DNA from: an uncultured Clostridia bacterium
Lineage (GTDB): Bacteria > Bacillota > Clostridia > Christensenellales > UBA1242
DNA: 64,000 nucleotides
Direction: 5' to 3'
Assembly (NCBI GenBank): GCA_944381185.1
Contig: CALWKE010000002.1
Coordinates: 217,731 to 281,730 of the forward strand
The translations under genes were made by a program, and so were the position numbers. Below, one piece after another: positions 16,289 through 62,165 of this stretch (positions are counted from its first letter, which is position 1; each line of letters opens with the position of its first letter). Under the pieces are notes generated by a model. It ran no database searches, was not told where the DNA came from, and saw only the letters and a list, made by a program, of their open reading frames with translations.

Positions 16289-16302
16289 ATATTATCCTTA
16301 AA

Positions 16303-16330
16303 TTAAATCCACACTTATGTGTGGATTTAA
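16303..16330 (-). other. Perfect 12-bp stem-loop immediately after the capsid gene stop
   Basis: Plus strand reads ttaaatccacac-ttat-gtgtggatttaa. On the minus strand it is not followed by a clean U-tract. Confidence 0.6.
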
Positions 16331-17518: not shown

Positions 17519-17526
17519 AAATTCTC

Positions 17527-20147: not shown

Positions 20148-20577
20148 TTGATATCTCCGATATTAGTTTATTTTTTAAATTAATCAATTCTTCATTAGAC
20201 ATGTTTTCTATATCATTAATATCTATCTCCTTCCTAAAAATTTCAAATAGAATTTTAATAGCAAGCATATCAGGCGGAATATAATGCGTGGTAATTTTCT
20301 TTTTAACGAGAGTAAGGTTTTCATTGGTTTGCTTAAAGTTTTCTGGTTTTCCATTTGATACTTCAATGATATCACTAGATTTATAAATATCAGTATTACC
20401 CCTGTCAATTTTATCAAAAAAACTTATATTTTCGCATTTTTGATTATCTTTTTTAGAATTATCTGCTAATTTTTGCGTTTTTTCATATTCTAATAATTCT
20501 TCATTATAGAAGAATCCAGAAGCTTTTTTTATAAGAATTTTAATTAAATCGTTTTCATTAAATTTGCTTTTGCTCAT
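20137..20577 (-). CDS. Hypothetical phage protein
   Basis: 146 aa, start overlaps the TerL stop. No motif recognised. Confidence 0.4.
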   Translation of the reverse strand: MSKSKFNENDLIKILIKKASGFFYNEELLEYEKTQKLADNSKKDNQKCENISFFDKIDRGNTDIYKSSDIIEVSNGKPENFKQTNENLTLVKKKITTHYIPPDMLAIKILFEIFRKEIDINDIENMSNEELINLKNKLISEISNEN

Positions 20578-22007: not shown

Positions 22008-22081
22008 TAAAGTTATTTGAGATGCTAAAATTAGACAAAAATCGCATTTTTTATTAAAAATAATTGAAATATAATATCAAT

Positions 22082-51100: not shown

Positions 51101-54092
51101 CAATTTTGATATATCAACAAAATGTGGTTTCTTGGTATTCAATTCTGTTGATGGTAGTAATGATTACTATGTTCCATCACTCTATGCAACCACTTCAAAA
51201 TCAGGATTTAGTAGTGAATCAAATGAATATTTTGGTGAAATTTACAAAGACGCTGATGGCAACTTATATGTTAAAAAAGAAAAAACTACTTATCATTTAA
51301 ATAAAACTGGAGAGTCAGACCCTACTCTTACAACAGAATCTAAAGAAATTTACTTTAGAGTTATTAAATATTATGAAACTGACACTTATGCAGAATATAG
51401 TGCAGACTATATTAGTGATTATGTAAACAAATCATCTGATTATGATGATGAATCAACTCCACTTGTAATTTTTGATTCTAAAAACATTTCAACTTATGAA
51501 AGTGCTGAAGGATCTAAATTTAACATTAGTCAAAATAAATTCTACAGCAATGAAATTTTAAATGTAACTGGAAATATTGTTGCTGGAAACAGCAAATATA
51601 TCTACTCTATCTTCTATTTTGATAATGAAGGAAACTTTGTTTATGATGGATATGCACACCATGTAACAACAAAAGAAATTTCTGAATCAACAACTGGTTC
51701 TATACCTTATATGGTTTACAACCAAACAGTAACAATTGACGGCGTTGATTACATATTTGCAGTATCTGCATCAACTGCACTGGGAACATATAATCCAGAC
51801 ACAAATAACACAAACTGGTGGGTTCAATACACAACTGCTTATATTGACACGGTTATTTCAAATTACACATTGAATGGTGGTGATTCAAATTCATCTAACC
51901 CATACAAACAAGCTTATGAAAATATTATGAGAACAATAATATTGACATCTGAATATGATTCTAATTTAGCAACAAATCGCACTAATAATATCTCTAGCAC
52001 AAATATTAATAACTACATTGAAAATTATTCAAAATTTGTTGATATTTCTAGAGGTTCAAGTGGTGATGTTGTTAAATTGAAAGAAAATTTATTCACAATT
52101 TCAATTGATGGAAATGAATATGATAGTTCAAGTTTCAGAAGTGACAGAACAACAATAACTTCATCAGATTCTGATAATCCATTTATGCAAGGTGAATTTT
52201 ATGGAACTTTACATTATAAATATGTTACATCAGCAGATGGTGTTCTTCAGATAATTTTATATGCTGAATTACGCATTCCATATAATTCAAATGGTCAACC
52301 ACCTATTGTAACAATTACTGGACATGATAATAAGATTGCTAATGGTGAAGACCCTAATTATAACCTGTCTTATGTCGGTGCAACTGTTAATTATAATAAT
52401 GTATATGAAGACCATAACCTTAACCTATCAGAAACAGATACAAACTATAAGCCACTTTCTGTTACAGAAAGGTTTGCGACAAGATATGATAACTACACCT
52501 CTGGTGTTGGAGTTGACTCATATTACATTAGCCAACCTCAAGATGTAACTGGATTCTTCCAAGAAATCTATACTGGCGGTTATTCAAATTCAAACACAGC
52601 TGAAATTCCTAATCTTAATGTTACTGTTAATTTGGTGTATAGACATCAAATAAAACAAATTTTAGCAAATGTAACAATAGATGAAAACGAATCTATGGTT
52701 GGTGAAGATTATATGACAAATAATAATAATCAAACAACCATAAGTCTTTTGAATAACAGTTCATATAGTTTCTTATCAAACAATTCAAATTGGCAGAAAT
52801 TATATAGCAAAAATCTTTTAAATGAACAAGTTTTAGCAGAATCTCCAGTAAATGATGATTTGATTGATTTATTAGGAAATAAAGGTAAGAAGAATCCTGA
52901 TCCAAATCAAATCAGAATGAATGGTTGGATGATTGAGCAATATAGTGTTTATGTTATTCCAAACGCATATCTAGTTCTTGATATGATTGATTCAATTATT
53001 CATGATAAGAGATATGCAAGTCGTGCATCAGTTAAAAAAGAGGCAACAATGTATCAAGCATACATTTTAACTTATGACCCTGAATGCTACTCTCAAAATC
53101 AATATCTGTTTAGTGAAGATTCTAAATATACTTATAAAGAATTATTTGAATTTTTAACACTCTATTACAGAGATGATGATGGCAATACGAACATTAACTT
53201 GCCAAGTCCAAATCAAGTAAAGAGCTTTATGAAAGTTAGAAAAATTGACTTCTTCACAACAGCAAGGCGTGGTGTTTACTCTAACTTTACCGGCAACTAC
53301 TTCACTCAAAATGACTTGCTTGTGACATCAACAATTTTAAAGCCAAAATATCAAGAAGCACTTGAATACGATACGCGAATTATATGGCTTATTGAAAATT
53401 ATGGTGGTTCTCGTCCTTATAGTTATTATGATAATGCAACAGCATCAATTGACTATTCAGGGCAAAATAATACTGGTAAAATCAATATGTCACCTGCAAC
53501 AATAGGAAACAAATATTTAACTGATAGCATTTCTCAAGGTTTGATATTCCAATTCTATAGGTTGCAATCAGACTTGACTAGTGACAAGTTGGCAACTATT
53601 GGTGCGGTATCACTTCTATCTCCAGATGAATTTTCAACTGGCGGAGGGTCAAGTGGTTCGCAACAAATTAACTATATAACATCAAATGTTGAAATTAATG
53701 CATTCATGTTATATGACGAAAATAACGACTACGATTCTAAAGATAACTATAAAAACAGAGCTGTTATTGAAGAATTTTGTTTCATAAGAACATATGCATC
53801 TGATATTATTGATGTCGGTTCAAAAATTGGTGCAGGACTTGCAATAGCTGTTTCAATACTTGTCTCTGGTGGTACGGCGACAGCAATTTGGGCTACTATC
53901 GGTGGTGTTTTATTAGTCGGTGGTAATGTCGTATCTAATTTAGGACAAGGTCAAGAAGCCATAATTAGTGGATTATTCCAATTACTTCCTGACACTGTGT
54001 TAAATGGTATTTCTGGTGATGATTTTGAAAAACAACTAGAATATCTTTATAACCAAGGTGCGGGCACCGAATGCTTACTGCATCAGACATGA
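24153..54092 (+). CDS. Giant (9,979 aa) predicted cell-surface protein with an N-terminal lipoprotein-type signal peptide, divergent Listeria-Bacteroides (Flg_new)-like beta modules and a C-terminal hydrophobic anchor
   Basis: One open frame of 29,940 nt. The other five frames over the same interval give no ORF above 107 aa in the track. Strong RBS. N-terminus is MKKLAKSNSKRILSKLAKSISLCLLAFVSIFFVAC|GQ. The C-terminus contains IGAGLAIAVSILVSGGTATAIWATIGGVLLVGG. A terminator follows the TGA stop. Confidence 0.9.
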   Translation: MKKLAKSNSKRILSKLAKSISLCLLAFVSIFFVACGQTSSAKESGFDANGRYRLNAPNIIHYNQTSDGTYNEYTGSFLVPMEFYNGNDYKSQTSGLDAFNLENFLKNYDQVGNWAISENDGTRLSSTDLLYPDYTFWVDGIIYQVHVSVNLSQLEIVRTAGGSANSYFNATNYVSALDDLSNIFKFSYRVGTSGVWQDADGFISAVYLKVNDATNTTDVISGKLGNQDDSYDKVFYMAFNPILQNGNTTRRIRVKATPNANISSDLSAVGSSASVEYKNRGDSIYSQTIVYKAYKMSFESYSPNSAYLDYGQLSYDKNKFFFYDEQTTFSLSTNKYYLTKIDGYFPEGRIVEVNREFDNDANGDDYALQSWTANRKGQTTLVTQETILNGINFDLFEDYDRGYHSLFGTTLNEKYFAIKSFINDSDVYSNGSSYTTFENITISNDQSTRTGTVYVVSKSDYNNYTFYANFIKINNFVLKGTLFDAEKILNVENAKLENVSYQIYNKDGVAYPDKSGTTADYTFEFTGLAYGDYVVFTKEDNTDPDNPISYKFYGNDISGLTVAGDSEFNVLKNYVTRETKLTAIVVTEIYNNVVSYVDPDSMSFVFNNRSYYVDENTVYDSNGNECTNFSVEYIYKVLDLTNVSVLATKYDDDTSLVVNVYALNNGDLIDPTEQGISYEVIKSVTSHVDQLGFVKTTVYVSVVLPSNATVQSYNVITDNSININLFQNSNNEFNKILKIVTLKNKEQVTNYYYVDITSNLNSSQVTVSSNGGNYLIYNDEYFAYAFKNVYNNTNYYIYQSCVSENMLVSYTSGSTQLYDFLDLETINYSTNSSDANYLAETAGGTISTGSIYSYILFNGYTYFLAPSDMDISIEGLKLTSNLPNEKFDVNVSYENEINFDEESIIQSILSSNNRTTYTKDETFNIYSGRFSIVGNLVDKYFYNLKVSAEYKLNDATHTIKSEMESLDPVVLSIEQVKFENSSEQTTYFTFYYDGVKYYYFSGKVYSQYDQYGETHFYGEISPDSNGFYEEFDYAKAAIDPSTQTVVFSKPVFTYLNRTYYLKIETTIDGKTVYTLHSDFFCTSDPIDFVSAYGYKNYSITGSNTSFSLTLVRYSVSIQSSLISNTYYINPESEYIFTNFECTQILDSGDDKYEIDLDNSKFILYNTYRTMVKFNVSGSTNYNGTYYFIDSSLVLFEKVNENYNSIKKFVYYGVSIDATNKKLSANFGTTLITKVTTINNGSFNINISNGEIEITSDTSIVDAKNAYQTVNKYFGSSNTSITATAYPTDMELSAFLIGDDYYYINEKSNELTIYAESNFTEGKILADKMLWTISEDLQSIQNIRYFSTKLGRVFESDDETYTLYDLYSDAVTSDNYKLDEIFVKIGNKSDILDSRVAYANKITLFGNSFYYESKTYYINPDEFQEGKVATIYSDEECTTKVDDIELFYNDQFTLIQITQNAETNAISLAQSIYIHDVYSIKETNVDTNRYEITLGNPTSNSPLNPTMSINGFNVDYKQDYTAKSKESICYAYYDIDSYTHLNEATNNHETQYFLTTPIAKNSVKIDENGNDITTLLFYYGVSNFDELRNNGSIVLGNEILRSTGHTAFKNAIGAKIDNSCYYYVNELGDPSTVYVYQEKTNHSNGQIVYSETEYYDEHGNLYEGEVYIKQSVFYTALFKSNSETISEMSNSETNIVDNYELKFKRTTSTGDLMYQVEYNGKVYYFSETTSPTIGDRYDLYTANVKTENGKSTDSGYDVTIIDSSTARLNYQSFTPGATSGYLTDQNGNVYNFNSSITAGDQGGNYSIVSNLDQKQDPIVELPGGAYDNFNSIIYQIRDNDTYYYQNNVVYSMVDEPLNKIRFVLNYTLYICYDSTSAVVPVNLYVINTVDNSSTGTYDGYCYIEDGKTVNAGQTVTIIKPLKDSAGKQIKFSDLYTALISGQKSIDMQFLYGSYRDDAQIYYYDANSTYYLLNGGIYYKYDEKSSSFVAATGEVNPGRLTRVNSKQNVGFSFYYNNKYYYADAVDGNVYEVDALDGHRSNKINSTYKYDTSSQTIYLSDGTTIFAKFNYSNNTVVIDGVTYPAVKSVYDYFTEKVYYLNNNSKLYKATTFDNSNSASYKFEDSDLVTEFNYIYISTDNTFEFRPAARYFVFANYKLTAITRDNATEGSDSFELIQAINSNGYATHIPSNRIITQSTVQYTNQSEYYKEPEFENKLERKIKSNVVEGGNSTHYVSGGLENSDLITLLGKFSISDSTGAVVTYPSYSILIPTTTGSAITDEDSYYPVDNTISSNATEGFPGVTMIDGVPYINQMFVFDVYHKQGMPAEVDLSILINSGYYVELISSIVEKENSQIITDFSTVTFRDTLANLNGNDYLDNMYYIVDSINYGTIAGYRLARNVSDNLTHVNYTTYYNEYRDDSSQYAYIFMYLNEYLELSAEERNSYYGLIYDHINYYQLYTSAVRITDCAMNSELSDSFIYYSDTTQIGDNGSTIYVDHIYRLVNGAFSELIDEECAIWESSSSKLTDIPYYDIHTYYQDEEGMIYLTSDIVSENQNAICEGLSGLELGATSSSSADVNYDNVIVAGLTTAFKVKTEDLQTSPTNNSFQGYWLDKAISVMNGSESANVYLECSTESVVLLASPLITFDGEIYYRLKQWKVYSRENSEYLMINNDAMAIIGDELYSPILRFTSNASGYYLFLPVYERVYSISLATEVQDGSINVGGSVSIESSSPSVSIDEDDYQDQTYFIDYLKPSDENYYYSSIETNTFLYFTGHFNSEGRPLFKQLGLSDDYSNSSSKSYMLFYYNESITTRYKLATFVGQNMISCEDVDVLSGVLKEGKSGLIRVTNNNGQYRFSQNYSYEQTLSTVNVFYDSYSFRPYVYNGEQCYIYSSNSNYNYYTITEILSYSMSTERVEEEINTTYKFRVVLQNNSFYIISDATYKNIIANSSITIDGLLTSQNKIANLVVLNFNVARQSSDDNYRQPYYSNASNNLNSGELYADENGNVYSTLQYKTNYYDRDSEILLKATAKTGYRLEGWYLATFDETYGWQVSENDITSEISTNYSDEIIKTEFANSSYVTTYTLSKKRYLPNGQTTNMTYSISSNVYIDVLFSDDMSEVPSSVVSNYAGIFANLGSSRTSPYFVQVYSKNGSTTDLYYDAEFTKPLKLTDFSVRVASFNDLWTNNYIGYMNFYDAVMTNYTYEGTTVKTDFQQLSNGDYISQSIKYTFNSQEVYAIYRYNDRTFSYDISYYRNYENGNYYVDENNVLHITNLHSNIRIVAKFIEIYKAFVFNEAEEESGISVEALYYYNEDDSKTTIRTSASGSNLTSDDIKLDGANNYFGAMALENGNPYRFSLMNDESDTSKTLFSNTESDPSKTYFDTIYNQTSKNNFNALSQLAGGTGSFEKNAYAIYRSDDYMISLRNFYFDSGTTIFLLIRLESGQQLSIHSLGLNQNYVLNFLFEPDMNAVESLNEDIDYVYYILKVTFDKNMEQTNGLTTTMGNQNPEYVLHPEKAMNLTSDVLSGNNIDFYDSYFDTFLKFNTSYSSDINMSETNYLKVVSGSNEFDLKIAYNIVSTAKYAKSFSFSQTMAETLFYWLVKNKNQGLIDLVNDDTLYKKVVQFGSDDVKNYTFNFSDYLTEQSSYQTRYNAIKTYIIEAFKMIYLTQKSNNAGYNFVRAVQTVVDYLDEVGIEIEIKTKAGEEVNYKTLSTINYYLTVSGDLYINQVLIDLILDSIVEVISPNSSLRDNLTIYTANIVAELQYRTYSRLSDFVRDLNQIIYAATYKSEIFSIDYVLYSKTYYEMLSDVETDQVSYENYISSATSTRENNMLNGINKIFYNSIQKFANYSISSSASDAITSVEGGLSLIEPKNIYTYGGPFANGIINYINLSSIKIYTVSVSTSIIDTVNISSDDSLDDQVVVSSDTNFMQNPYYILDDTIYTAGGVSSSLGDLTYIGGAYQEDITSTPVRYNIGYKKYQTFTNKFYHSSDSELYIREGDDINYSSYGDVTFAEYSIILLGGLRIKYGPRGGSANIGSSNPYDDVLTRTSNSETFFSASYKAIYDDYGNLYYVMQNDETREIYIYSNDYSTIYILPTGSINYSSVNSFEDAQEHISKAYHFAGWYLQTFNEDNGMWSNMECVSTDLYRPFVTTATSNINIAAIFAEVTNLKVTYDPETVNVSFETDEDSCGNKTLTTVNPDGTETLSGWFYYSSNPILMVSPLGGFRIANSFDFTYKTMDGDTFSYNVDLKNKEQTDGNNVVTTFDAELFGFLHYNQDTAKIEEANFNDISLTDVSYLQVNFTELMKTFNKDGDELASAFGTFDFTLNTEFIVLTYFVVEGYVESDEITGDDVVKSSIALYSYNNVKNEIDEVFFLTNSGNDVSTLEFNERYPVGKDSANNTIVVELQGSSLIFYGYFDYEKYNSYIDSSNPGNTNEFSLVTGIYHDNSVTTSEEYSAWLTNLTNMITGVNFTGNSLNNSPNTIKNEKVIYFYYGNNQTDAQDINSGANLDQSYHIIHLRATKSVNSILTVEENFYEVKTDGTVDKVDVNPTVPVPIMLIYNTDYYGEIGVNEGALKGNNGQLTFENKFSAQYKFGKNAGDNKNSYLTLSISEDYEYYYDKATDTYYKFVGYYTNSDQIIKKDNTDLIYNFSELPGGTIHAVFIKIMPISIYVTSGGSYSIEIKNNTLLTSGFWKDTIGNSIEGTSGISLDIGTANRYFSTETNSVITDKSFNYVIYGSNVTISPLATDGYAISSVTVDNNLITDENNYTTKIEYYDQTHTFQYIYSNAHIVTIKQYQLSSLSESAIAELYNDKSLAKLFVKQIDFNDADFLNSLIFDRYTNANIDKVNMKLSLADGADFYIYFFAPSTMQFVGFYKNGVLIAGSKDITPLKSITIGGETYTVYELRFSEVNNGKGAISDLSLEVRFSSIVTFETIIDGLTPDNSGEYPYDNILDDSQMEVVLDDDKNIIEYVISKTSNGNQTLGLNTNKTNPISISSGDVIDYNIFTVPNAEYSFVNYFFYKKYEATRLSSSATNNVWYSVNYEGQTYFFREDLTDLYETMDEENGVPTGDRVGVNATLDESGKYVLVESIISYNSDTNITINSIMIDNILDGQPLRIYAKFAQVVKLTFTKSVNPHNDDKNFYESPETNEEFLNYFNALIVYTNPNGNETTATLSDGLSTTITLAKSSTVRVYPYIAPQVENRYITTDTIYISTENTSRAEFKAVDGVFTIYTNASLNSYTDLSTTLQFYSAYTITINKTINGEGMDDNITNANKSNDMIHMINLSSLAEYSDGSLPVSDTHYLTSYDLIYEDIRNTTSITKLAYHNADSYTLTYPISRSSSSGTYYTTQTLSTSLMSGTNISNLVFYGWYLNGYLYSTNSTITLPLNNFMQLSTETDGYIIIYNNNSNENVISSVVPLSYDSSQGNYSFIFNDTTYRISKGTDLENFTGKIEAGGISFEYVYMASDNITFTASYGTFTKVSYTTNPIQEDGNILVNSTLSGNLLGITTSNEAITGSVGNYYIYDDTAYYNILANSKLQDSIANLGDYKLSAAVQSYTLKEDSLNNPNNSVYALTGSNLLITGGHLIGYRVIRYEFTGKRLVIRSTLNGDGQIVYTYSTEDIGNRSVSVLSGDNSMGYINLGTNEILTEIKVTVVFEEVYQVSTTVSTLDSYDDNNVSSSTSTNGGSIEVYSYNSQSSIDVNDGTFYSNTYDMLSITPKANDGYTFVGLFLDGQYLGEDQLGYDTYARTEPIILDLKNLGFAGDDCKSILLEARFAKNIKFTIRLAIEDTNLRDTIYNLYGISDRNSDLFDIKITLSSIYSNIVYGASGDVPLTEEELTKSIWDYMPVKVNVGDTYDTTENYYFEDGTPYSRDDDDGYWDEYGKATPTNPLYTHDDEFLYIEFTVAYGTHVEFEVASEDPQIQFNNNVRTYHFNGWYLYNRNQISLSNSVIDYSTVLDLYATQDYYGSTIEIIAKYDLDDVSETISTTKEIEIIDEANANLDIDINSINTSNYENGILTLNGKEYMFAGWWQVVADSTRPSTYILISNDFFDELPTVNYLVARFVRLMPITITLPEESSGYVQTRLNYRYFYTFNDVNDNRIQNYITENNNLVLHYNVPIDTYFNNTNIFAYTGHYFTITDSIKTDNYVSYIVSSSDRVNNTIGERQDVESLNYIEHNGNIYYINNNTLYNKVSAEDGSIRFYNVDSTGAETNLTIEQLDPTINSYTIRGNQVTIYYGTNNSVSRTIVAANYVIYNNNVYFVVGSNLYSSVKATDESVISSIDINGTTIYYLILNNVVIFSTDNNSNIGLSGTSIEIESINKAGFKYEVESDYDVLSVIDGGYTISYIVTTIEDDGSYGVTDSVAGGRFVSQSINTVGGTESTSKYVYSSNFPILNLRLSPSTGYTFIGLYINGEYVENSYNTLSLSINLSDYSSDIVVEAKFAKNISIEYRLSVDNSDSKSFIYQELGLTDLAIEGLINNIYSSINASYTLGDEIYSSSININDINIEDNEVSLIFIVTVPYGTRLTFGINSNLHEVQASNGTPYYFYGWYLYENNDISQSNSLVTSGGSFTIYAIDDGESTLQFVAKYLKSENTSPIYTTANIEVYSYVDDQLMIQSVSYNEFINTYGDLQLRKTINGKEYLFAGWWQVINDRTKILVSNNPTDQELISNCIGRYIELKTITIDYSEQSSISISGNLHQSFSYAQSTTISSPILSADIDVGNSDLIITTTIFSAFTNVVIRAHNGFYFRNENDVYDATEVTGLEFKLHGENYSDLFTVSNNTSEIADVYIRYSRVYSDENQFLTNVENSNPNDEVVVAIQNNNNTFRVSIVAENISTTINDANRENASSSIFVVMNGISQNNLNQNQFLDSTIQSIYIEDRIIYIYNNALYKNLLSLKIYKERFDDVYYITQNNVNYYIEFDSYGNFLKLTDSDGKDVSLNVITGYSTNVALITPDKYTLYIYTNKATNDEYNLKTTVTSDTVSCDIEYTNSNNIKATETFMIANNVVDRYYTRYTHLVVTLSKEYYTESFLGFRIIYDSGITTFYSAKVYGYSLSLIVNESVTISAQFEEAINDPNSAASNNGSSSGGNQGTEQGAPSDKPEYGDGDDQTGEIVTIETTNTSSIQYLHEIQLNISGTRLNFVYDYSSNSFEVSGNNEFGISVAGIANTSVSDDLGQIFYRNATISIPLSVYESNTITFDIITYNIYTLNVSVSQNDSSTVSSGGNNEYIAEIDILYPHDYMENQNAGNRTEFINNIKLYMYLSSIISTKDCDIISGIKLSDTMTENGFIDGFYAFETNVQLQDGVTTGAKLTGTTADGEGKYDGNVVLIQTDIYNYSLVYNFRTQGTIRIYIHPQYFTGSGYDANRTSSLILGIAEEDLIKDIIIVGNPDNQDITVGELTFDPNYKRQPSANSATGSWYVDITYYFSEPISIYFKSTYLSFSNYYYYNNGQTTPENVTQLSKDPYPLYSNNSALSISYDEYLSLRKSSQNGDMVILNCVASESIKSTTVKFEYEKANLKLTVEINGKNYIYNSNNGIFTCSATTGQTTYNTQQVELVNEIDSNDTISLTVQSFYDSSNAKYPFNIKFIYGHELVSNGARFNVELIDFEAKYQYSGLEGPNDPIVKVKDFGTYLLGFKNAYCENASQLITVSTTPGLVEPEFTFQLGENFADSNEIIIETNRYYYILYMKDYTYMNGDYGVPTIELNVTEPGVGSNKYVPLATHGTDGGRKHTFALYAYVLDGSAVEVIAGAPDESDTEHLVYGILYRENFNTLTESVLIETLLDGDINNYIYSQNNNGAIMDASVPSAIIKSETAGFTSISNLTSSTTKYIYIPESSRAYIADYYGIEGVASDIKLVGIIAPGNSSEYKYGSNPILNISSHTNGYNFIIEQSTYGSEVIFIQEVDDKYKYSQKEILEQNGNIYIDADDDEAVNSLTYTRFETTQITVYLLNNSVSQYSYLVSSSYNSNGLTTGFYKQLVLPPINEGKEMDFIVKDTIESYIEDTSVTESTFNNSVYYTIGINGSMQIAEKYENGKVYFIRSDKDLIIHGITLHYGGKDYYITNTGIYDDPSFEKEYNPAEKSIFIQPNYDDYSVKIYHFTYTFKLNGQNYTYDGKDVKDSNGNIVQGASVDFTGIPILTIGTASDIATSISIDPSATETISLIDKEEYNEIQNELQENANNPDYEDTHKYVYKLIKVRIVESEYIEYTLNDEENALIELEDGNSVSSDIVISYETKERRGVYYVEINGTIYYINNVTLYKDFECTIPVENDELDNYIVYYKEMYIDKNATPLEVKEDASGYHFGTGDAIYDFDIVTGDLTADSLKPSKPDPNYPDDPTKVINLTYRFDSPIVKIDSNKYNTVKEDIYVDQFNVGGVNYYINNLKLYSDYPFIDANKYVPNSDNPNTISSYHIFPEFIRYDSVRYTKVNDNPSDYNAIQYQSDSGETITLNESTGVVTKIIDGVSTDITSNVKFSNSKVVRYKLYVENADGSVTESSSEQIINSGKDYIIDIINSEATGSFSSTYTDVTITKLQANAYDGYYIKGFVIFSDAELAKDRNMWLHYELDTTTANGLAGLQGLDTYSSFKYMNYIPIEYQTYQSDVNDAYELIKDENGNIVSVALNINLKLNGSFKIYAVYAPVIYSVSFNILNVQEIISKDGVINYNDIYNRFLISDNLEETTAGYIKGQMLAEHGGNAWIRAFANQGSEFIGLSLAYSSMTEQIQSIYSNLTIDNNLSVDEVINSGILDAGDEGLDDDKLNLYKAQGVNAPYEENGTKKYYFLSEKNMYYDIYGNPENPDDTNYVNSGNINATSSTDKINSLFLFNITDDVTLNFYFKSIEYTLDIVIGESNSGYYDSDNDAGTNSNGVDNASGSDSFLSYGEDVINGTNENGESWKNPTNNMVSEALGDLPYTDVISSEGSKVDDASGFYSLDKENPYKFISDTDPLVYTIFDYQGNLISAQWKDANGAITERVNPSAILSSTINFDISTKCGFLVFNSVDGSNDYYVPSLYATTSKSGFSSESNEYFGEIYKDADGNLYVKKEKTTYHLNKTGESDPTLTTESKEIYFRVIKYYETDTYAEYSADYISDYVNKSSDYDDESTPLVIFDSKNISTYESAEGSKFNISQNKFYSNEILNVTGNIVAGNSKYIYSIFYFDNEGNFVYDGYAHHVTTKEISESTTGSIPYMVYNQTVTIDGVDYIFAVSASTALGTYNPDTNNTNWWVQYTTAYIDTVISNYTLNGGDSNSSNPYKQAYENIMRTIILTSEYDSNLATNRTNNISSTNINNYIENYSKFVDISRGSSGDVVKLKENLFTISIDGNEYDSSSFRSDRTTITSSDSDNPFMQGEFYGTLHYKYVTSADGVLQIILYAELRIPYNSNGQPPIVTITGHDNKIANGEDPNYNLSYVGATVNYNNVYEDHNLNLSETDTNYKPLSVTERFATRYDNYTSGVGVDSYYISQPQDVTGFFQEIYTGGYSNSNTAEIPNLNVTVNLVYRHQIKQILANVTIDENESMVGEDYMTNNNNQTTISLLNNSSYSFLSNNSNWQKLYSKNLLNEQVLAESPVNDDLIDLLGNKGKKNPDPNQIRMNGWMIEQYSVYVIPNAYLVLDMIDSIIHDKRYASRASVKKEATMYQAYILTYDPECYSQNQYLFSEDSKYTYKELFEFLTLYYRDDDGNTNINLPSPNQVKSFMKVRKIDFFTTARRGVYSNFTGNYFTQNDLLVTSTILKPKYQEALEYDTRIIWLIENYGGSRPYSYYDNATASIDYSGQNNTGKINMSPATIGNKYLTDSISQGLIFQFYRLQSDLTSDKLATIGAVSLLSPDEFSTGGGSSGSQQINYITSNVEINAFMLYDENNDYDSKDNYKNRAVIEEFCFIRTYASDIIDVGSKIGAGLAIAVSILVSGGTATAIWATIGGVLLVGGNVVSNLGQGQEAIISGLFQLLPDTVLNGISGDDFEKQLEYLYNQGAGTECLLHQT
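41090..42380 (+). repeat. Copy A of a divergent tandem module of about 430 aa inside the giant ORF
   Basis: Colinear with copy B. Shared anchors are GYTFVGLFLDG, EARFAKNI, YHFNGWYLYN, IIAKY and NGKEYMFAGWWQV. A 37-nt stretch from 42207 is identical at 36 of 37 positions to the stretch from 44061. Confidence 0.8.
43130..44220 (+). repeat. Copy B of the divergent tandem module
   Basis: Anchors GYTFIGLYING, EAKFAKNI, YYFYGWYLYEN, FVAKY and NGKEYLFAGWWQV occur in the same order as in copy A. The anchor offsets are in frame (2004 nt and 1854 nt). Confidence 0.8.
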
Positions 54093-54172: not shown

Positions 54173-56206
54173 ATGAAGAAATATTGCATTAAATTAACTA
54201 AAATATTCACTTTAGCGTTATTTGCGTTCCTTTTATCATTCAGTTTGATAAATAATTTTACTATAAAATTTGATAAAACTTTAACGAAATCAAACGCATC
54301 ATCAATATCTGCAGATTTTAGCATTTTTATCAGCAATGCCACCTACTCTACTTTTTATAACAATAAAATTTATTTTATTGATAGTTATGATAATTTGCTA
54401 AAAATTTATGACACTAACAATAAAAAATTTTTAAATGAATATCTTGATTTAACAGAATATGAAGAAATTGTTGACGCCACCTATTTAGATGGAAATATAT
54501 TTTTATATTCATCACTAAATCAATTAGTAATAATTAATTTAAATGATTTGTCAATAAAAACTATATCTAATGAATTATTAACAAATAGCTTAAGCAAAAT
54601 ATCTGTTACAAAAATAAATGATGAAGATTTGCAAAAATTTGCTATAACCCTTTCCCCTGATATAATAAATGAACAAGTTTCACCAGTTGTTATGTTGATT
54701 GATGAAACATCTTTAGAGTTATCTGAAATATGTAAAATTAATTTAGTTTCAAATGATTTTGATGATATTAAAACAAGTCTTATAAAAATATTTGTTTTAA
54801 ATTCTCAAACCGTTGATAATGAAATTAATATTATGTTTTTTTACGGAAGTAATGTAGCCTTTGCATCACTTTCAATTAACTCATTAAAAAACAATGAAAC
54901 AATTTCATCGGTAACATTAATTTCGGCGCAACTTGATAACACCAATCATAACATAAATATAAAAAATATCAATTTGATGCAAATATCAAATAATTCATAT
55001 TATCTTATAACCTATTCTGACAACTCAAACAATGCTTATTCAAGGCTTTACAGATACAAACTTACAAATAGCATAGAAACAAGTTTTGAGTATTTATCTC
55101 AAATAGAAACCTCAAACACTAAATATGTTTTAACTTCAAATGAATATGTAATTTTTCCAAATGATAACCAATCAATAACCTATGTAAAAATAGAATATGA
55201 TGATGAAAATGAAATTATTTCTAATATTAACACAACAATAACAAACCCAATTGTTACACCTGAATATTTTGAAGAAGAAAATTTTGTTTATATGCAAACA
55301 AATAAAAACACAAAACTACTTTCTTCTCCTTGGGATTTCGACGAAATAATTATTATAAATGAAAATATTGATATAATAAACATTGGAAAAGGCAAAATTG
55401 AAAGCGAAAATTCAGTCATTGAAGACTTTTTGTATTGTTTATACACATTTGATGGCGTCAATTATAAAGGTTACATTAAAACCGAAGATTTGACTGAAAA
55501 ACAAATAATACCTGTTGAAAATTATCCTTATCCGGTGTTCAAAACAGTTCCAAACTCAAATCTATACTCCCTGCCAACAAAAGTTTTGGGCGACATGATA
55601 ACAAATGATTTATCATCATCTGTAATTATGCAAATTGAAGCAAATTCAAGAGTTGAAGTTTTAGATGTTATTTGTGGCTACACTTCTCTTGATTCAACAA
55701 TGATAAAAGTAAAAGTAAATAATAACCAAATTGGATATATTGAAACAAATAACATAATTCACCCAAGTGATAAAGTTGATTATGTCATAACAAATTCAGC
55801 AATCAAACAAGATAAAACAAATGTTTATATAAATGCTAATTCAAATAGTGCAATTATTTATACATTAGATAAAGGTTATAGAATAAGAATAAATGCAGTT
55901 CGTGACACAAAAACTGGATACACAAGTATAACTTTTAATGACGAATACGGAAATGAATTTTCTGGTTATATTATCACTGATGTAATTTCAGCAGATAGTT
56001 GGACAACATTGCAAATAGTTGGTTGCATTTTAATAGCAATAAATATTGGCCTTTTAATATTAATTCTGTTATTCAAAAAAGAAAAAATCGGAGGACGAGG
56101 TCAAAAATATACTGCTAGTGAAACCACAAATTACGGCAAAACAAATATTACAAATTCTAATATAAAATCAAATGAATCAAACAACAAAAAAGAAGATGAA
56201 AAGTAA
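54173..56206 (+). CDS. Membrane protein: signal peptide, beta-rich ectodomain, three SH3b-like repeats, TM helix, then a Lys/Asn/Glu-rich tail
   Basis: 677 aa. N-terminal signal IFTLALFAFLLSFSLI. SH3b-like repeats end in YKGYIKTEDL, QIGYIETNNI and FSGYIITDVI. TM helix LQIVGCILIAINIGLLILILLF. Confidence 0.65.
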   Translation: MKKYCIKLTKIFTLALFAFLLSFSLINNFTIKFDKTLTKSNASSISADFSIFISNATYSTFYNNKIYFIDSYDNLLKIYDTNNKKFLNEYLDLTEYEEIVDATYLDGNIFLYSSLNQLVIINLNDLSIKTISNELLTNSLSKISVTKINDEDLQKFAITLSPDIINEQVSPVVMLIDETSLELSEICKINLVSNDFDDIKTSLIKIFVLNSQTVDNEINIMFFYGSNVAFASLSINSLKNNETISSVTLISAQLDNTNHNINIKNINLMQISNNSYYLITYSDNSNNAYSRLYRYKLTNSIETSFEYLSQIETSNTKYVLTSNEYVIFPNDNQSITYVKIEYDDENEIISNINTTITNPIVTPEYFEEENFVYMQTNKNTKLLSSPWDFDEIIIINENIDIINIGKGKIESENSVIEDFLYCLYTFDGVNYKGYIKTEDLTEKQIIPVENYPYPVFKTVPNSNLYSLPTKVLGDMITNDLSSSVIMQIEANSRVEVLDVICGYTSLDSTMIKVKVNNNQIGYIETNNIIHPSDKVDYVITNSAIKQDKTNVYINANSNSAIIYTLDKGYRIRINAVRDTKTGYTSITFNDEYGNEFSGYIITDVISADSWTTLQIVGCILIAINIGLLILILLFKKEKIGGRGQKYTASETTNYGKTNITNSNIKSNESNNKKEDEK

Positions 56207-56828: not shown

Positions 56829-58634
56829 TTAAATTTTATCTTCACTATTGTTTTTAATTAAACTGATATGAATTTCTTCAATTTGTTTATCGGTTACAAA
56901 ATCAGGTGCTTCCATAACAAGGTCTGCACTTGTTTGAATTTTAGGAAATGCAATAACTGACTTAATATCAGATGAACCTGAAAGTAACATAACAAGCCTG
57001 TCAAGTCCAAAGGCTAACCCACCATGTGGTGGTGCACCATATTTAAATGCTTCAATGAAAAATCCAAAAAGTTCGTTAATTTTCTTATCATCCATACCAA
57101 GTGCTTCAAACATTTTAGCCTGAAGTTCAGGGTCATGAATTCTAATACTTCCACCACCAACTTCATATCCGTTGATAACAATATCATATGCTTTTGCATA
57201 TACTTTTTCAGGACTGGTTAACAAATATTTAATACAGTCATCTTTAGGAGCAGTAAACGGATGATGAAGTGCAACAAATCTTTCTTCTTCATCACTATAT
57301 TCAAATTCAGGAAAATCAACAACCCAGAGTGCATTAAATTTTGATTTATCAATTAAATCAAACTTTTCAGCAAGATGAAGTCGAAGTTTGCCAAGAGCAG
57401 TTAAAACAATTTTATTTTTTGCATCAGCCACAAAGAATATAACATCGCCTTTTGTTGCATTAGTTCTCTTAATAATTTCATCAATTTGTTCTTTTGTAAA
57501 GAATTTTAATAAAGGACTCTTTGGAGTATCTTCTTCAAAAGTAATATAACTCATGCCCGGAGCACCAGTTCCCTTGACAAAAGTAACAAGTTTTTCAAGT
57601 TCAGTTCTAGATAATTTTTCAAACATTCCCTTTCCGTTAATAACACGAACACTGCCACCTTGAAGCACTGCATTTTTAAATGGAACAAGTGTGCAATCTT
57701 TTGCTAGGTCAGAAATATCAACAAGTTCAAGTCCAAATCTTGTATCTGGCTTATCAGAACCATATTTTGACATGGCTTCATCATAAGTAATTCGTGGTAA
57801 TGTCCCTAGATCATAGCCAATTGTGTCTTTGAAAATTTTAACAAAAAGTTTTTCAGTTATTTGCATAACTTGTTCTTCTTTATCAACAAAAGACATTTCC
57901 ATATCGACTTGAGTAAATTCTGGTTGCCTGTCAGCTCTTAAATCTTCATCTCTAAAACATTTTGCAATTTGATAATATCTATCAATACCAGAAATCATTA
58001 AAAGTTGTTTATAAAGTTGTGGACTTTGTGGAAGAGCAAAAAACTTGTTTGGAAAAACTCGGCTAGGAACTAAATAATCTCTAGCACCCTCTGGAGTAGA
58101 TTTTCCAAGAATTGGGGTTTCAACTTCAATAAATGAATTGTTATCAAAAAAATCACGAACAATTTTACATATCTCGTTTCGCAAAAGAAGTTTTTGCATA
58201 ACAACATCTCTTCTAATATCAAGATACCTGTATTTTAATCTAACAGAATCTGAAGGACTGTCGTCTTCGTTAATTTGAAAAGGTATTGGCAAACTTTTCG
58301 CTAATACTTTCATTTTAACAGCACGGATTTCAATATATCCAGTTTTGCTTTTTGGATCAATAGTATCTTCTTCTCTTTTTACAAGTTTTCCACAAACTGA
58401 AATAACAAATTCATTTCTTAATTTGTCAACTTTATCATAATCATCTAAAAATTTTGACCTATCAAAAACAACTTGAAGTTTACCAGTTCTGTCACGAAGG
58501 TCAACAAACACAAGGTCACCAAAATCCCTTCTGTTAGCAACCCAACCATGTGCAACAACTTCACTATCCAAATCATCAGTAGTAAATTCTCCACAAAATT
58601 TTGTTCGTTCTAATCCATCTAAAATATCTAACAT
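56829..58634 (-). CDS. aspS: Aspartate--tRNA ligase
   Basis: Colinear with bacterial AspRS, including the OB-fold N-terminus HGWVANRRDFGDLVFVDLRDRTG and class II motifs (FRDEDLRADRQPEFTQ, GGGSIRIH, GLAFGLDR). I moved the start to ATG 58634 (MLDILDG), which has AAGGAGA 6 nt upstream. The track start at 58673 lies inside the terminator/leader. Confidence 0.93.
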   Translation of the reverse strand: MLDILDGLERTKFCGEFTTDDLDSEVVAHGWVANRRDFGDLVFVDLRDRTGKLQVVFDRSKFLDDYDKVDKLRNEFVISVCGKLVKREEDTIDPKSKTGYIEIRAVKMKVLAKSLPIPFQINEDDSPSDSVRLKYRYLDIRRDVVMQKLLLRNEICKIVRDFFDNNSFIEVETPILGKSTPEGARDYLVPSRVFPNKFFALPQSPQLYKQLLMISGIDRYYQIAKCFRDEDLRADRQPEFTQVDMEMSFVDKEEQVMQITEKLFVKIFKDTIGYDLGTLPRITYDEAMSKYGSDKPDTRFGLELVDISDLAKDCTLVPFKNAVLQGGSVRVINGKGMFEKLSRTELEKLVTFVKGTGAPGMSYITFEEDTPKSPLLKFFTKEQIDEIIKRTNATKGDVIFFVADAKNKIVLTALGKLRLHLAEKFDLIDKSKFNALWVVDFPEFEYSDEEERFVALHHPFTAPKDDCIKYLLTSPEKVYAKAYDIVINGYEVGGGSIRIHDPELQAKMFEALGMDDKKINELFGFFIEAFKYGAPPHGGLAFGLDRLVMLLSGSSDIKSVIAFPKIQTSADLVMEAPDFVTDKQIEEIHISLIKNNSEDKI

Positions 58635-58663
58635 AATATTTCTCCTTTTTATTACTTTAAATG

Positions 58664-58695
58664 AAAAAAGCACATCCGAGTTATTTCGAATGTGC
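58664..58695 (-). terminator. Attenuator terminator in the aspS leader
   Basis: Minus strand reads GCACATTCGA-AATAAC-TCGGATGTGC (10 bp, one G-U) followed by TTTTTT. It ends 16 nt before the aspS RBS. Confidence 0.75.
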
Positions 58696-58746
58696 CAAAC
58701 ATTAAAATTTTAACAATTAACAAAATAACCCATTTAATAATGTGCT

Positions 58747-58788
58747 TTAGTCGTTATTATTGTTATTATTGTTAATAAATCTTTTCAT
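58747..58788 (-). CDS. Leader peptide MKRFINNNNNNND (seven Asn codons then one Asp codon) upstream of aspS
   Basis: Minus strand reads GAGGT-aact-ATG AAA AGA TTT ATT AAC AAT AAT AAC AAT AAT AAC GAC TAA. It lies between a near-consensus promoter and the attenuator terminator. Confidence 0.6.
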   Translation of the reverse strand: MKRFINNNNNNND

Positions 58789-58810
58789 AGTTACCTCAAT
58801 AAACAATAAA

Positions 58811-58839
58811 ATATTATCATAATTATTCACTAATGTCAA
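58811..58839 (-). promoter_or_regulatory. Sigma-A type promoter of the aspS leader
   Basis: Minus strand has TTGACA (58839..58834), 17-nt spacer and TAATAT (58816..58811). Confidence 0.7.
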
Positions 58840-58966
58840 TAACTTTTAAATAATTTACAAAAAGTTATATTTATATAATTGATAATATAATTTAATAAAT
58901 AAAATTTTACAACAAATATGCAATTTTATATCAATATTTCATTTAAAATAAATAAATTTTGCGTTT

Positions 58967-59560
58967 TTATAAATTAATAATATAATTATAAATATCTTTC
59001 CAATTGCTAAAATAAACAATGTTTTTATTAACAAATGATTTTTTTATTTCATTTGTTATTCTAATTGTTTTTATACCTAAAAGAGCAGAAGCTGTGCAAT
59101 TTGTTAAACTATCATCAATAAATAAATCTATTTTTTGATTTTGAATTTCAATAGACTTATTTTTAGCATTAACAACAATTTTATCATACATTATGTTATT
59201 TTTATCAAGCCAATCTTTGCTTAATTTATATGGGTCTTCATGAAAAACAGTATCTCTTGCTGTTATTATAATAATTTTATTGCCCATTGCTTTTAATTTA
59301 TTAATTGCTTGAACTGCAAAATCTCTTGGCTTTGCGTTGTTCATAATTTCTTCCTGAATATCTCGCATAAAAAACATGAATTCATCATCATTAAAATTAA
59401 AATATTTTTGATAACATGAACCATCATTTTTTACATCTTCAATAATTTTATTTGTTTTTGGCAAAGGTTTCCCCAACTCTTTTAAATAATTAAATCCACT
59501 ATTATAAAATTCTTTTTTTATATCAGTTATTGTATCGTCTATATCAACCCCAATATTCAT
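58967..59560 (-). CDS. HAD-superfamily hydrolase, 5'(3')-nucleotidase-like
   Basis: 197 aa. HAD motif I DIDDT at residues 6-10, motif II IIIITARD, motif III/IV K..DLFIDDS. RBS GAAGGTG. Confidence 0.6.
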   Translation of the reverse strand: MNIGVDIDDTITDIKKEFYNSGFNYLKELGKPLPKTNKIIEDVKNDGSCYQKYFNFNDDEFMFFMRDIQEEIMNNAKPRDFAVQAINKLKAMGNKIIIITARDTVFHEDPYKLSKDWLDKNNIMYDKIVVNAKNKSIEIQNQKIDLFIDDSLTNCTASALLGIKTIRITNEIKKSFVNKNIVYFSNWKDIYNYIINL

Positions 59561-59655: not shown

Positions 59656-59741
59656 TGGTGCCGAAGGCGGGACTTGAACCCGCACGAAGTTACCCTCAAC
59701 AGATTTTGAGTCTGTCGTGTCTGCCATTTCACCACTTCGGC
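59656..59741 (-). tRNA. tRNA-Leu (anticodon CAA), class II long variable arm, CCA encoded
   Basis: Minus strand reads GCCGAAGTGGTGAAATGGCAGACACGACAGACTCAAAATCTGTTGAGGGTAACTTCGTGCGGGTTCAAGTCCCGCCTTCGGCACCA. Acceptor stem GCCGAAG/CTTCGGC, anticodon stem ACAGA/TCTGT with loop CU-CAA-AA, T-arm GCGGG-TTCAAGT-CCCGC. Confidence 0.93.
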
Positions 59742-60566: not shown

Positions 60567-61994
60567 TTATATTTTTTTATCTAAAACATCAACACCTAAT
60601 TCTATTAATTTGTCACGAATATAATCAGATAGTTGATAATTTTTTTCAGAACGCAATTTTGTTCTAATATCAGAAATCAAATTTAAAAGTTCAGAATCTT
60701 TAGTTTTATTTTCTGATTTTATTTTATCACAAACAAACTCTAATCCCAAAACATCTTCAACAACTTTTATAATAGAATTTATAATTATTAAGGTTTCTGA
60801 CTCATTATTTTTTAATGCATTACTTGCAAGTTTAGAAAGTTTTAAAACTTCTGCCATTGCAAGAGGTGTATTAAAATCATCACTCATAGCTGAAATAAAA
60901 TTATTATAAATTTCAGAAAGTTCATCATTATTTATTTTATTACTTTTTAAATTAATAATTTTGTTTAAAGATTTTTCTTTTACTTGTGAAAAATTTTCAA
61001 CAAGCTTGTCATACTGCTCTTTAACTTTGCTTATTGCATTAAAACTAAAATCAACTGGTTTTCTATAATGAAATTGCAAAATATAATATCTTATTAAAAG
61101 TGGGTCAAATTTTTCAAATAAATCATTAAGTGTGATGAAGTTACCTAAACTTTTACCCATTTTTGTTCCATTAACAGTAACAAGATTATTATGCATAAAA
61201 TAATTAACAAAAGGTTTTCCGTTAGCAACTTCACTTTGAGCAATTTCACTATCATGATGAGGAAATATATTATCAATTCCACCACCATGAATATCAAATG
61301 TTTCACCTAAAAATTTGCGGCTTAATGTTGAACATTCAATATGCCAGCCCGGATATCCAACTCCCCAAGGTGAATTCCATTTCATTATGTGTCCACCGAC
61401 TGCTGATTTCCATAAGGCAAAATCTTCCGGATATTCTTTATCATCTGCAACAGAGATTCGCTCTCCTGAAAGATTATTTTCAATTTTTCTATTTGAAAGT
61501 TTTCCATAATCAGAAAATTTATGAACTGAAAAGTAAACATTGCCCTGTTTTGTCACATAAGCATATCCTTTTTCAATTATTTTTTGGATAAATTCAATAA
61601 TATCAGGAATAAAGCCTGTTGCTCTTGCACTAATGGTTGGTCTTTTAATATTAAGCTTATCCATAAAATAAAAATATTCTGTTTCATATTTATATGCAAG
61701 TGCATATGGGTCAACATTCTCTTTTTGGGCTTGAACCAAAATTTTATCTTGACCATCATCACTATCACCAACCAAATGGCCAACATCAGTTATATTTTGA
61801 ACATATTTAACATTATAGCCAGCATATTCAAAAAATCTTCTAACAACATCAAAATTAACATAAGATTTTGCATGACCTAAATGTGGTGGACCGTAAACAG
61901 TTGGACCACAAACATACATTCCAACCCTTCCTTCTTGAATTGGTTTAAAAATTTCTTTTTTTCTTGACAATGAATTATAAATAAATATTTGCAT
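60567..61994 (-). CDS. cysS: Cysteine--tRNA ligase
   Basis: HIGH motif PPHLGHAKSY and KMSKS motif TKMGKSLGN, colinear with CysRS. I moved the start to ATG 61994 (MQIFIYNS), 6 nt downstream of GGAGG (62005..62001). The track start at 62000 abuts the RBS. Confidence 0.93.
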   Translation of the reverse strand: MQIFIYNSLSRKKEIFKPIQEGRVGMYVCGPTVYGPPHLGHAKSYVNFDVVRRFFEYAGYNVKYVQNITDVGHLVGDSDDGQDKILVQAQKENVDPYALAYKYETEYFYFMDKLNIKRPTISARATGFIPDIIEFIQKIIEKGYAYVTKQGNVYFSVHKFSDYGKLSNRKIENNLSGERISVADDKEYPEDFALWKSAVGGHIMKWNSPWGVGYPGWHIECSTLSRKFLGETFDIHGGGIDNIFPHHDSEIAQSEVANGKPFVNYFMHNNLVTVNGTKMGKSLGNFITLNDLFEKFDPLLIRYYILQFHYRKPVDFSFNAISKVKEQYDKLVENFSQVKEKSLNKIINLKSNKINNDELSEIYNNFISAMSDDFNTPLAMAEVLKLSKLASNALKNNESETLIIINSIIKVVEDVLGLEFVCDKIKSENKTKDSELLNLISDIRTKLRSEKNYQLSDYIRDKLIELGVDVLDKKI

Positions 61995-62007
61995 AAACAT
62001 CCTCCAA

Positions 62008-62039
62008 ACAAAAAAGATGAGCAGTTATCTACTCATCTT
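62008..62039 (-). terminator. Attenuator terminator in the cysS leader
   Basis: Minus strand reads AAGATGAG-TAGATAACTG-CTCATCTT followed by TTTTG, ending 2 nt before the cysS RBS. Confidence 0.7.
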
Positions 62040-62088
62040 AATATATTAGACAACTGAAAAAAACCTTATAAAAAGGTTAAAATTTTAT

Positions 62089-62115
62089 TCAGTTACAACA
62101 ACACATTTTTTTCAT
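62089..62115 (-). CDS. Leader peptide MKKMCCCN (three consecutive Cys codons) upstream of cysS
   Basis: Minus strand reads GAGGG-aaat-ATG AAA AAA ATG TGT TGT TGT AAC TGA, about 15 nt downstream of the predicted transcription start of a consensus promoter. Confidence 0.65.
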   Translation of the reverse strand: MKKMCCCN

Positions 62116-62136
62116 ATTTCCCTCAAATATACAAAA

Positions 62137-62165
62137 ATTATATACTAGCATTAAATTTATGTCAA
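62137..62165 (-). promoter_or_regulatory. Consensus sigma-A promoter of the cysS leader
   Basis: Minus strand has TTGACA (62165..62160), 17-nt spacer and TATAAT (62142..62137). Confidence 0.75.

Follow-up and report, generated by a model that had tools for sequence, protein, structure and literature searches.

An asparagine-codon leader peptide and competing terminator and antiterminator structures upstream of aspS suggest ribosome-mediated attenuation in an AT-rich Clostridia lineage

Why would a gene for aspartyl-tRNA synthetase (AspRS) be preceded by a short open reading frame (ORF) filled with asparagine codons? The question is raised by the leader of aspS in a 64 kb stretch of DNA from an uncultured Clostridia bacterium (contig CALWKE010000002.1), which was analyzed as a whole and is called the window below. 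The window has 28% GC, and all leader and aspS coordinates refer to its minus strand. The aspS leader is a real and conserved regulatory element. It shows every sequence-level feature of the leader-peptide attenuator class, and its sequence and modelled folds make it very probable that it is a ribosome-mediated transcription attenuator reading the supply of Asn-tRNA(Asn).

The gene presumed to be regulated, aspS (56829..58634), encodes a 601-aa bacterial-type AspRS with a GAD domain (profile search: NF001750, 797 bits; NCBIfam aspS_bact TIGR00459, 765 bits). The leader starts with a sigma-70-type promoter (58811..58839), in which TTGACA (58839..58834) and TAATAT (58816..58811) are separated by a 17-nt spacer. 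Its -10 element is of the extended type, with a TG at 58819..58818 (TG-A-TAATAT). The Shine-Dalgarno (SD) sequence GAGGT (58793..58797) lies 5 nt 5' of the leader ATG (58788). The leader ORF (58747..58788) has 13 codons and a stop codon and encodes MKRFINNNNNNND. It reads ATG AAA AGA TTT ATT, followed by seven consecutive Asn codons (AAC AAT AAT AAC AAT AAT AAC, 58753..58773) and by GAC TAA. This Asn run, region 1, is the putative sensor and also the 5' strand of an anti-antiterminator with region 2. Region 2 consists of two segments. Region 2a is AGCACAU (AGCACAT in DNA, 58740..58746), whose partner is AUGUGCU at the base of the terminator 3' arm. Region 2b is GGGUUAUUUUG (GGGTTATTTTG in DNA, 58721..58731), which can pair either with region 3 to form the antiterminator or with region 1. 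Together with the extension UUAAUUGUUAAAAU (58707..58731 including region 2b), GGGUUAUUUUG is the alternative partner of the Asn run. Region 3, CGAAAUAACUC (58678..58688), comprises the top of the terminator 5' arm, the loop and the first bases of the 3' arm. The intrinsic terminator (58696..58669, DNA GGCACATTCGA-AATAAC-TCGGATGTGCT) was also called by a terminator scan; in RNA, the arms GGCACAUUCGA and UCGGAUGUGCU form an 11-bp stem with the loop AAUAAC, followed by U6 down to 58664. The SD of aspS, AAGGAGA (58641..58647), is seen between the terminator and the gene. A preliminary description of this DNA had listed the promoter, the leader SD and ORF, AGCACAT, GGGTTATTTTG, the terminator and the aspS SD and ATG, and each of them was found in its place. 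The distance from the U-tract to the aspS ATG is 29 nt in the window, which is too short for a separate promoter. It is 22-45 nt across the leader-bearing lineages described below, again with no promoter between. Because this gap is short and promoterless, aspS would depend on read-through of the terminator.

AspRS scans of GTDB species genomes and JGI metagenome collections gave nearest relatives of 77% and 55% identity, respectively. The useful relatives came from a search of a large protein collection, followed by contig look-ups for the upstream DNA. The leader was found upstream of aspS in seven lineages, the window and six others whose AspRSs are 96-75% identical to that of the window. 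The in-frame homologues of the leader peptide are MKKFINNNNNNNG (AspRS 96% identical), MKKLINDNNNNNF (87%), (GTG)IKIINNNNNNNLKTHF with a GTG start (82%), MFMIINNNNNNNNSNTF (76%), MRFFNNNNNNNNLVNDQ (75%) and MMIRVINNNNNNNSLSAYNYGLFLYC (a second lineage at 75%). Conservation of the mini-ORF had been named as a test in the preliminary description, and the ORF is conserved with its Asn enrichment in all these lineages. A TTGAC(A) -35 element and a TGnTAnAAT-like -10 element are present at the equivalent place in 7/7 lineages, as is an SD-like sequence (GAGG, GGAG, AGGAG or AGGGGG) 5-12 nt 5' of an in-frame ATG or GTG. The relatives have 6-9 Asn codons against seven in the window, and the run begins at codon 5-7 throughout. 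Third-position C/T differences between the lineages are synonymous and Asn is kept, while the flanking residues and the position of the stop codon vary. When 742 kb (the window and the fetched loci) were scanned with a covariance model derived from the seven leaders, no further copies of the element were found.

The residue after the Asn run is D, G, F, L, S or L/S depending on the lineage, and GAT occurs inside the run in one lineage only. Because the terminal Asp codon is not conserved, the sensor appears to read Asn and not Asp. Sensing of tRNA-Asn and/or tRNA-Asp had been proposed in the beginning; the Asn part is retained, since the run is kept in seven lineages, and Asp as the sensed codon was ruled out by the variable last codon. 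In all seven lineages, 18-22 nt separate the end of the Asn run from GRGUUAUU, the conserved GGGUUAUUU segment in region 2b. Measured from the start of region 2b, the stop codon can be as much as 15 nt before or 21 nt after it, and in the lineages with 75-82% identity it lies at or past region 2b.

The Asn run is not a chance product of AT-rich DNA. It is the sole run of at least five AAY triplets on either strand of the window (128 kb counting both strands). In the other fetched loci, AAY runs of at least six triplets are confined to aspS leaders of the same clade, and no protein of the window has an Asn run longer than four. The 9-nt tandem repeat that makes up the run in the window is itself not conserved: AAC/AAT patterns and repeat units differ between lineages. 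A chance run or a simple tandem repeat, which the preliminary description had asked to be excluded, was ruled out by this uniqueness together with the differing patterns. The fold of the leader RNA has a z score of -3.0 relative to shuffled sequences.

The leader does not match a T-box or another curated RNA family. No T-box match was obtained in the window at the Rfam gathering score, nor at E <= 10 within 58400..59100, and such a hit had been named beforehand as an outcome that would overturn the attenuator proposal. The same Rfam T-box model (RF00230) does detect T-boxes upstream of aspS in relatives, with 94-137 bits. At gathering thresholds, Rfam found only an RNase P RNA and a tRNA in the whole window. 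The Rfam amino-acid leader families (His, Trp, Thr, Leu, Phe and others) gave no match to the leader, and only sub-threshold matches were seen. The best of these was the SpF39 small RNA (sRNA), with 35.8 bits versus a gathering score of 60, and its alignment consists of the terminator and A/U-rich filler. The match to rteR (22.6 bits versus 72) is at chance level. With both the threshold and the permissive scans lacking a real match, a T-box or a curated family was rejected.

Both alternative structures are conserved. Pairing percentages and compensatory pairs were counted on the alignment of the seven leaders. In the terminator, 97% of the cells are paired and three pairs show compensatory changes. 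In the antiterminator (2a:4 plus 2b:3), 94% of the cells are paired with two compensatory pairs, compared with 33-52% in controls with slid partners. Helix 1 of the antiterminator (AGCACAU:AUGUGCU) is 92% paired, and one pair changes from G-C to A-U on both sides. Helix 2, the 11-bp helix GGGUUAUUUUG:CGAAAUAACUC, is 96% paired across lineages. In locus L166, region 3, which both structures share, has a C-to-U change, and its partners in region 4 and in region 2 both carry the matching G-to-A change. The two helices given in the preliminary description therefore exist and are kept in relatives. The pairing of AATAAC in the Asn run with the middle segment that it had suggested was also recovered: in the unconstrained minimum-energy fold the Asn run is paired with GUUAUUUUGUUAAUUGUU (starting GUUAUUUUGUU...), and the terminator is formed. 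In the window the terminator (-15.7 kcal/mol, -15.4 to -15.7) and the antiterminator (-14.4 kcal/mol) have similar energies. The gap is no more than 2 kcal/mol in 4/6 of the other lineages; the antiterminators of L164 and L171 score much weaker, and the energy values of L171 and L177 are skewed by alignment indels. When nascent RNA ending before the terminator 3' arm was folded with Asn codon 4 covered by a ribosome footprint, the 2b:3 helix was the minimum-energy fold in 7/7 lineages. Without the ribosome, the 1:2 pairing was obtained in 6/7 lineages. On these models, the four-region logic, 1:2 and 3:4 versus 2:3, is that of classical attenuation.

The following sequence of events is proposed. 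RNA polymerase would initiate at the promoter 58839..58811 and a ribosome would load onto the 13-codon leader ORF. When Asn-tRNA(Asn) is scarce, the ribosome would stall at the first of the seven Asn codons and occupy region 1, and region 2 (AGCACAU...GGGUUAUUUUG), about 20 nt further on, would be left free. Free region 2 could then pair with the emerging terminator 5' arm and loop and with the 3' arm, forming the antiterminator and allowing read-through into aspS. When Asn-tRNA(Asn) is plentiful, the ribosome would reach the stop codon, masking region 2a in the window and both 2a and 2b in the deeper lineages. After its release, the Asn run would pair with region 2, the terminator 58696..58669 with its U6 would form, and transcription would end at about 58664. 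Masking of region 2 at the stop codon had been put forward in the preliminary description. It holds in the window for AGCACAU, which would be covered; GGGUUAUUUUG probably would not, as it begins 15 nt past the stop codon. For this reason, the 1:2 pairing after release is more likely than stop-codon masking to be the route to termination in the window. In the lineages with 75-82% identity, a ribosome at the stop codon would mask region 2b directly. Ribosome-mediated attenuation, as first suggested for this leader, is thus supported by the ORF, the Asn run and the covariation of terminator and antiterminator in seven lineages, together with the folding. L177 (75%) differs in that its leader ORF (2770..2860, 26 codons) runs through region 2. 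When its full-length RNA is folded, region 2 is able to pair with the leader's SD and start codon region, which hints at an extra layer of control, namely sequestration of the leader's own ribosome-binding site.

A second synthetase gene in the window has a similar leader. cysS (60567..62000, minus strand) lies 3 kb from aspS, and its leader (62008..62163, minus) contains the promoter TTGACA-17-TATAAT, the SD GAGGG and a mini-ORF (62114..62088, minus; ATG AAA AAA ATG TGT TGT TGT AAC TGA) encoding MKKMCCCN. The segment CAGUUGUCU can pair either with the Cys-codon region or with AGAUAACUG of the terminator, which is GAUGAGUAGAUAACUGCUCAUC followed by U6. The fold of this leader has a z score of -3.8. 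In the 76% relative L169, MTYCCRLS and a stop codon (345..371) stand in the same place with the same layout. The cysS leader is a candidate second leader-peptide attenuator, predicted to read Cys codons. Because both synthetase genes of the window have leader peptides with a cognate signal, the codon-sensing reading of the aspS leader is strengthened.

Several points weigh against this reading. When the full-length RNAs were folded with a 30-nt ribosome footprint centred on the early Asn codons, the equilibrium switched to the antiterminator in 3/7 lineages, and in the other four the terminator was still the minimum-energy fold under the stalled ribosome. Since the terminator wins at equilibrium in these four, the modelled switch must be kinetic, as in other attenuators. 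L177 is the lineage whose ribosome-free nascent fold did not contain the 1:2 pairing. The Asn run doubles as a strand of a conserved helix, so its conservation could be partly structural rather than coding. The leader SD of L166 is weak and stands 12 nt from the start codon. Two lineages of the same clade, L001 (77%) and L169/L170 (76%), have a promoter and a short untranslated region but no leader, and leader control is therefore dispensable. L169/L170 keeps the cysS-tRNALeu-aspS synteny despite its leaderless aspS. Leader-peptide attenuation requires a ribosome that keeps pace with RNA polymerase, which is not known to hold generally in Bacillus subtilis. The last point concerns the enzyme. 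His31 and Gly82-83 (Pseudomonas aeruginosa numbering) are reportedly the anticodon-domain signature of non-discriminating AspRS. At the equivalent positions, His and Gly are present in the non-discriminating enzymes of P. aeruginosa and Mycobacterium, Leu and Lys in the E. coli enzyme, and Phe (residue 38) and Asp in the window AspRS. Inspection of the anticodon-binding region, recommended in the preliminary description, thus did not find the proteobacterial/actinobacterial signature in the window enzyme.

The relatives of the window AspRS offer an explanation for the Asn codons. We infer that this AspRS lineage works with GatCAB, so that Asp-tRNA(Asn) would be converted to Asn-tRNA(Asn). In an organism using this indirect pathway, most of the AspRS output would go to tRNA(Asn). 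Because Asn accounts for 9.5% and Asp for 5.8% of the codons in the window ORFs, Asn-tRNA(Asn) would be the limiting product of AspRS. In the nearest outgroup (AspRS 61-67% identical), aspS is directly followed by gatC-gatA-gatB. Nine pairs of AspRS and GatB come from contigs of identical length. Many more distant relatives also have aspS-gatCAB, and several of them carry an Rfam T-box just upstream with the scores given above. In the T-boxes on aspS-gatCAB operons, the specifier loop is GAAGAACA and variants, with AAC (Asn) before a conserved purine (L068 2698..2950, L059 2639..2888, L023 2649..2904 and L070 2709..2953; also L080, L138, L064, L073 and L100). T-boxes with a GAC (Asp) specifier were found at aspS genes without gatCAB downstream (L028, L093, L113, L124 and L130). 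The GAAGAACA specifier often has an overlapping GAA, like the clostridial 'NT-box'. The AAC-before-purine arrangement is that described for the Asn-responsive T-box of Clostridium acetobutylicum (Saad et al. 2012/2013, as relayed in PMC4206432 and PMC4574755). From the Asn specifiers with gatCAB linkage and the Asp specifiers without it, a shared Asn logic with different devices follows: in this part of the tree, GatCAB-coupled AspRS appears to be regulated by tRNA(Asn) charging, and the window clade may do the same through a leader peptide.

Residue 38 of AspRS (window 58521..58523), equivalent to P. aeruginosa His31, was compared across 177 loci and 120 proteins. The numbers of AspRSs linked versus not linked to gatCAB were 55/3 for Met, 5/13 for Phe, 0/61 for Leu, 0/9 for His and 1/15 for Lys. 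The 13 unlinked AspRSs with Phe38 are those of the leader-bearing clade. Phe38 is common to the window clade and all the relatives with 61-67% identity, which are the gatCAB-linked group. Because Phe is shared with gatCAB-linked relatives and Leu is never linked, the proteobacterial His/Gly signature may not apply to this lineage. Met or Phe at residue 38 may instead be a marker of non-discriminating AspRS in Clostridia.

Among the alternatives, the one that survives best accepts Asn sensing and denies the non-discriminating enzyme. Asn starvation would then serve only as a proxy for a shortage in the aspartate family, or the leader would be a relic of a GatCAB-coupled ancestor. The absent His/Gly signature agrees with it, and so does gene order, as aspS in the leader-bearing clade is no longer adjacent to gatCAB and is followed by NUDIX and other genes. 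No gatA or gatB is present in the 64 kb window, and the gatB of the window genome was not identified among the best 120 relatives of GatB from the L173 operon. However, producing more of a discriminating AspRS gives no relief of an Asn-tRNA(Asn) shortage, so there would be no selection for 6-9 Asn codons in seven lineages. Linkage to gatCAB and Phe38 are found throughout the closest outgroup lineages, the T-box specifiers are Asn with gatCAB linkage and Asp without it, and the cysS leader shows the same device used cognately in this genome. We consider this alternative unlikely. The relatives give good grounds for linking the leader with a non-discriminating AspRS, a link that is still putative in the window genome. 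Two gatB candidates were rejected: P0208 comes from a different organism, whose AspRS-gatCAB locus has an AspRS of the archaeal type, and P0230 is on an unrelated contig with 36% GC. The fetched loci contained no gene for AsnRS or tRNA(Asn).

Two other arrangements were seen around aspS in the relatives. In a human-gut lineage with a 67% identical AspRS (L173..L176), a gene for a 359-aa asparaginase-family protein (PF00710, 1916..2995) precedes aspS by 5 nt, and the operon, asparaginase-aspS-gatC-gatA-gatB, thus combines an asparaginase-like protein with the transamidation genes. L179 (1391..6446; also L180 and L183), with 25% GC, encodes a 429-aa archaeal-type AspRS without the GAD domain, followed by gatC, a gatA of unusual length (573 aa) and gatB (481 aa).

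A second alternative dispenses with translation. The AAY segment would be the anti-antiterminator strand of an RNA switch or a TRAP-like protein site, and the mini-ORF would be incidental. The extensive pairing between the Asn run and region 2 means that the sequence is constrained by structure besides coding, alternation of AAC and AAU also fits G-U/A-U pairing, and leader translation is so far a prediction. The coding features argue against it. An SD and an in-frame ATG or GTG precede the run by 4-6 codons in 7/7 lineages despite diverged flanks, and no lineage has an in-frame stop codon before the end of the run. The run is always in the Asn frame; of the other two frames, one has stops and the other would give Thr-Ile repeats. 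The spacing of 18-22 nt between the run and region 2 fits a ribosome footprint. In addition, Cys codons matching the gene in the cysS leader are expected of codon sensing and not of a protein-binding repeat. Such a switch therefore seems quite improbable.

The weakest alternative, that nothing is regulated and a constitutive leaky terminator or stabilising hairpin, possibly ending a small transcript or sRNA, merely follows an accidental mini-ORF, can draw on the 28% GC of the genome with its common Asn codons (9.5%), the 9-nt duplication, the two leaderless lineages and the SpF39 match, but it is very hard to reconcile with a run unique in 128 kb and kept in seven lineages whose AAC/AAT patterns and repeat units differ, with the 22-45 nt promoterless gap that makes read-through necessary, with a terminator-sequestering helix conserved with covariation and matched energy, and with an SpF39 alignment made of terminator and filler.

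Some other features of the window should be noted. The RNase P RNA is of bacterial class A (3808..4132, minus, 250 bits). The tRNA is tRNA-Leu(CAA) (59656..59741, minus), whose gene separates the cysS operon from aspS in several members of the clade. On the plus strand, 24153..54092 is one uninterrupted ORF that encodes 9,979 aa, the first 2,000 of which match nothing in Pfam. Its orthologues are about 9,900-11,100 aa where complete and occupy the same position in the clade members whose flanks reach that far, adjoining a 640-710-aa protein, NUDIX and aspS. The ORF at 54173..56206 has a weak SH3_3 match. A block of ORFs at about 10000..23700 (minus) is mostly without Pfam matches. Because it contains a P22-like portal (18125..19984) and a large terminase (20574..22007), both minus, it is probably a prophage or a remnant of one.

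If the attenuation reading of the aspS leader is true, it has several implications. The aspS and cysS leaders together suggest ribosome-sensed attenuation of synthetase genes in some Firmicutes. We tentatively entertain, at somewhat less than even chances, that this AT-rich, small-genome Clostridia clade replaced its synthetase T-boxes with leader-peptide attenuators, at least at aspS and cysS. If so, transcription-translation coupling in these Firmicutes would be tight enough for sensing by a ribosome. An Asn leader on aspS would then mark organisms in which Asn-tRNA(Asn) is made only via a Phe38-type non-discriminating AspRS and GatCAB. The codon content of the leader would then be a sequence-only predictor of the physiological role of AspRS, which is hard to obtain from the protein sequence. 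It would also be the first attenuator in which the amino acid sensed is not the one that the controlled enzyme nominally uses. No earlier description of an Asn-specific leader-peptide attenuator or of aspS attenuation was found in Rfam or in the literature, which was covered incompletely.

Leader-peptide attenuators of synthetase genes are known for pheST in enterobacteria and predicted for trpS and leuS in Streptomyces, and in the same survey no Firmicute synthetase gene was known with classical attenuation, only T-boxes having that role (PMC1262725). The aspS leader resembles those of E. coli pheST (pheM leader) and Streptomyces trpS and leuS in having a short ORF rich in the codons of one amino acid, regions 1-4 with exclusive 1:2/3:4 versus 2:3 pairing, and a terminator just before the synthetase gene. 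In contrast, their codons are those of the synthetase's own amino acid, whereas Asn codons are found here on aspS. The host is an AT-rich Clostridia-like Firmicute and not a proteobacterium or an actinobacterium. There is no sequence similarity between the leaders, and the Rfam Phe, Trp, His, Thr and Leu leader models do not match here.

Two other systems come from Firmicutes. In Bacillus, His leader peptides were predicted upstream of hisS paralogues and hisZ (Naville & Gautheret 2010, PMC2965389). They are alike in that a leader-peptide attenuator replaces a T-box at a synthetase-family gene, an instance of a change of sensor at one gene, but they are cognate (His for hisS), while the present leader is cross-specific (Asn for aspS) and occurs in another taxon. 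In B. subtilis, ribosome-mediated attenuation controls bmrCD (PMC4191407) and, with NusG-dependent pausing, yxjB/tlrB (PMC6851288). There, too, translation of a leader ORF controls an intrinsic terminator, but these systems answer antibiotic-induced stalling and not the charging level of one tRNA.

The closest functional counterpart is the Asn-responsive T-box ('NT-box') of C. acetobutylicum, which, according to the accounts of Saad et al. 2012/2013 in PMC4206432 and PMC4574755, controls tRNA-dependent asparagine formation. As far as those accounts go, the aspS leader shares with it and with the AAC-specifier T-boxes a GatCAB-coupled AspRS (putatively so here), tRNA(Asn) charging as the signal and a terminator/antiterminator output. 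The sensors differ: uncharged tRNA is bound directly by the T-boxes, whereas a ribosome on Asn codons is proposed here. The aspS leader has neither stem I with a specifier loop nor the T-box sequence GGGUGGUACCGCG, and the element is about 140 nt long compared with about 250 nt for T-boxes. Downstream of it is only aspS, without the gatCAB of the aspS-gatCAB operons. The two would therefore represent convergence, in which the tracking of tRNA(Asn) charging by AspRS expression, known from the clostridial Asn T-box, was rebuilt with an unrelated sensor in a neighbouring lineage.

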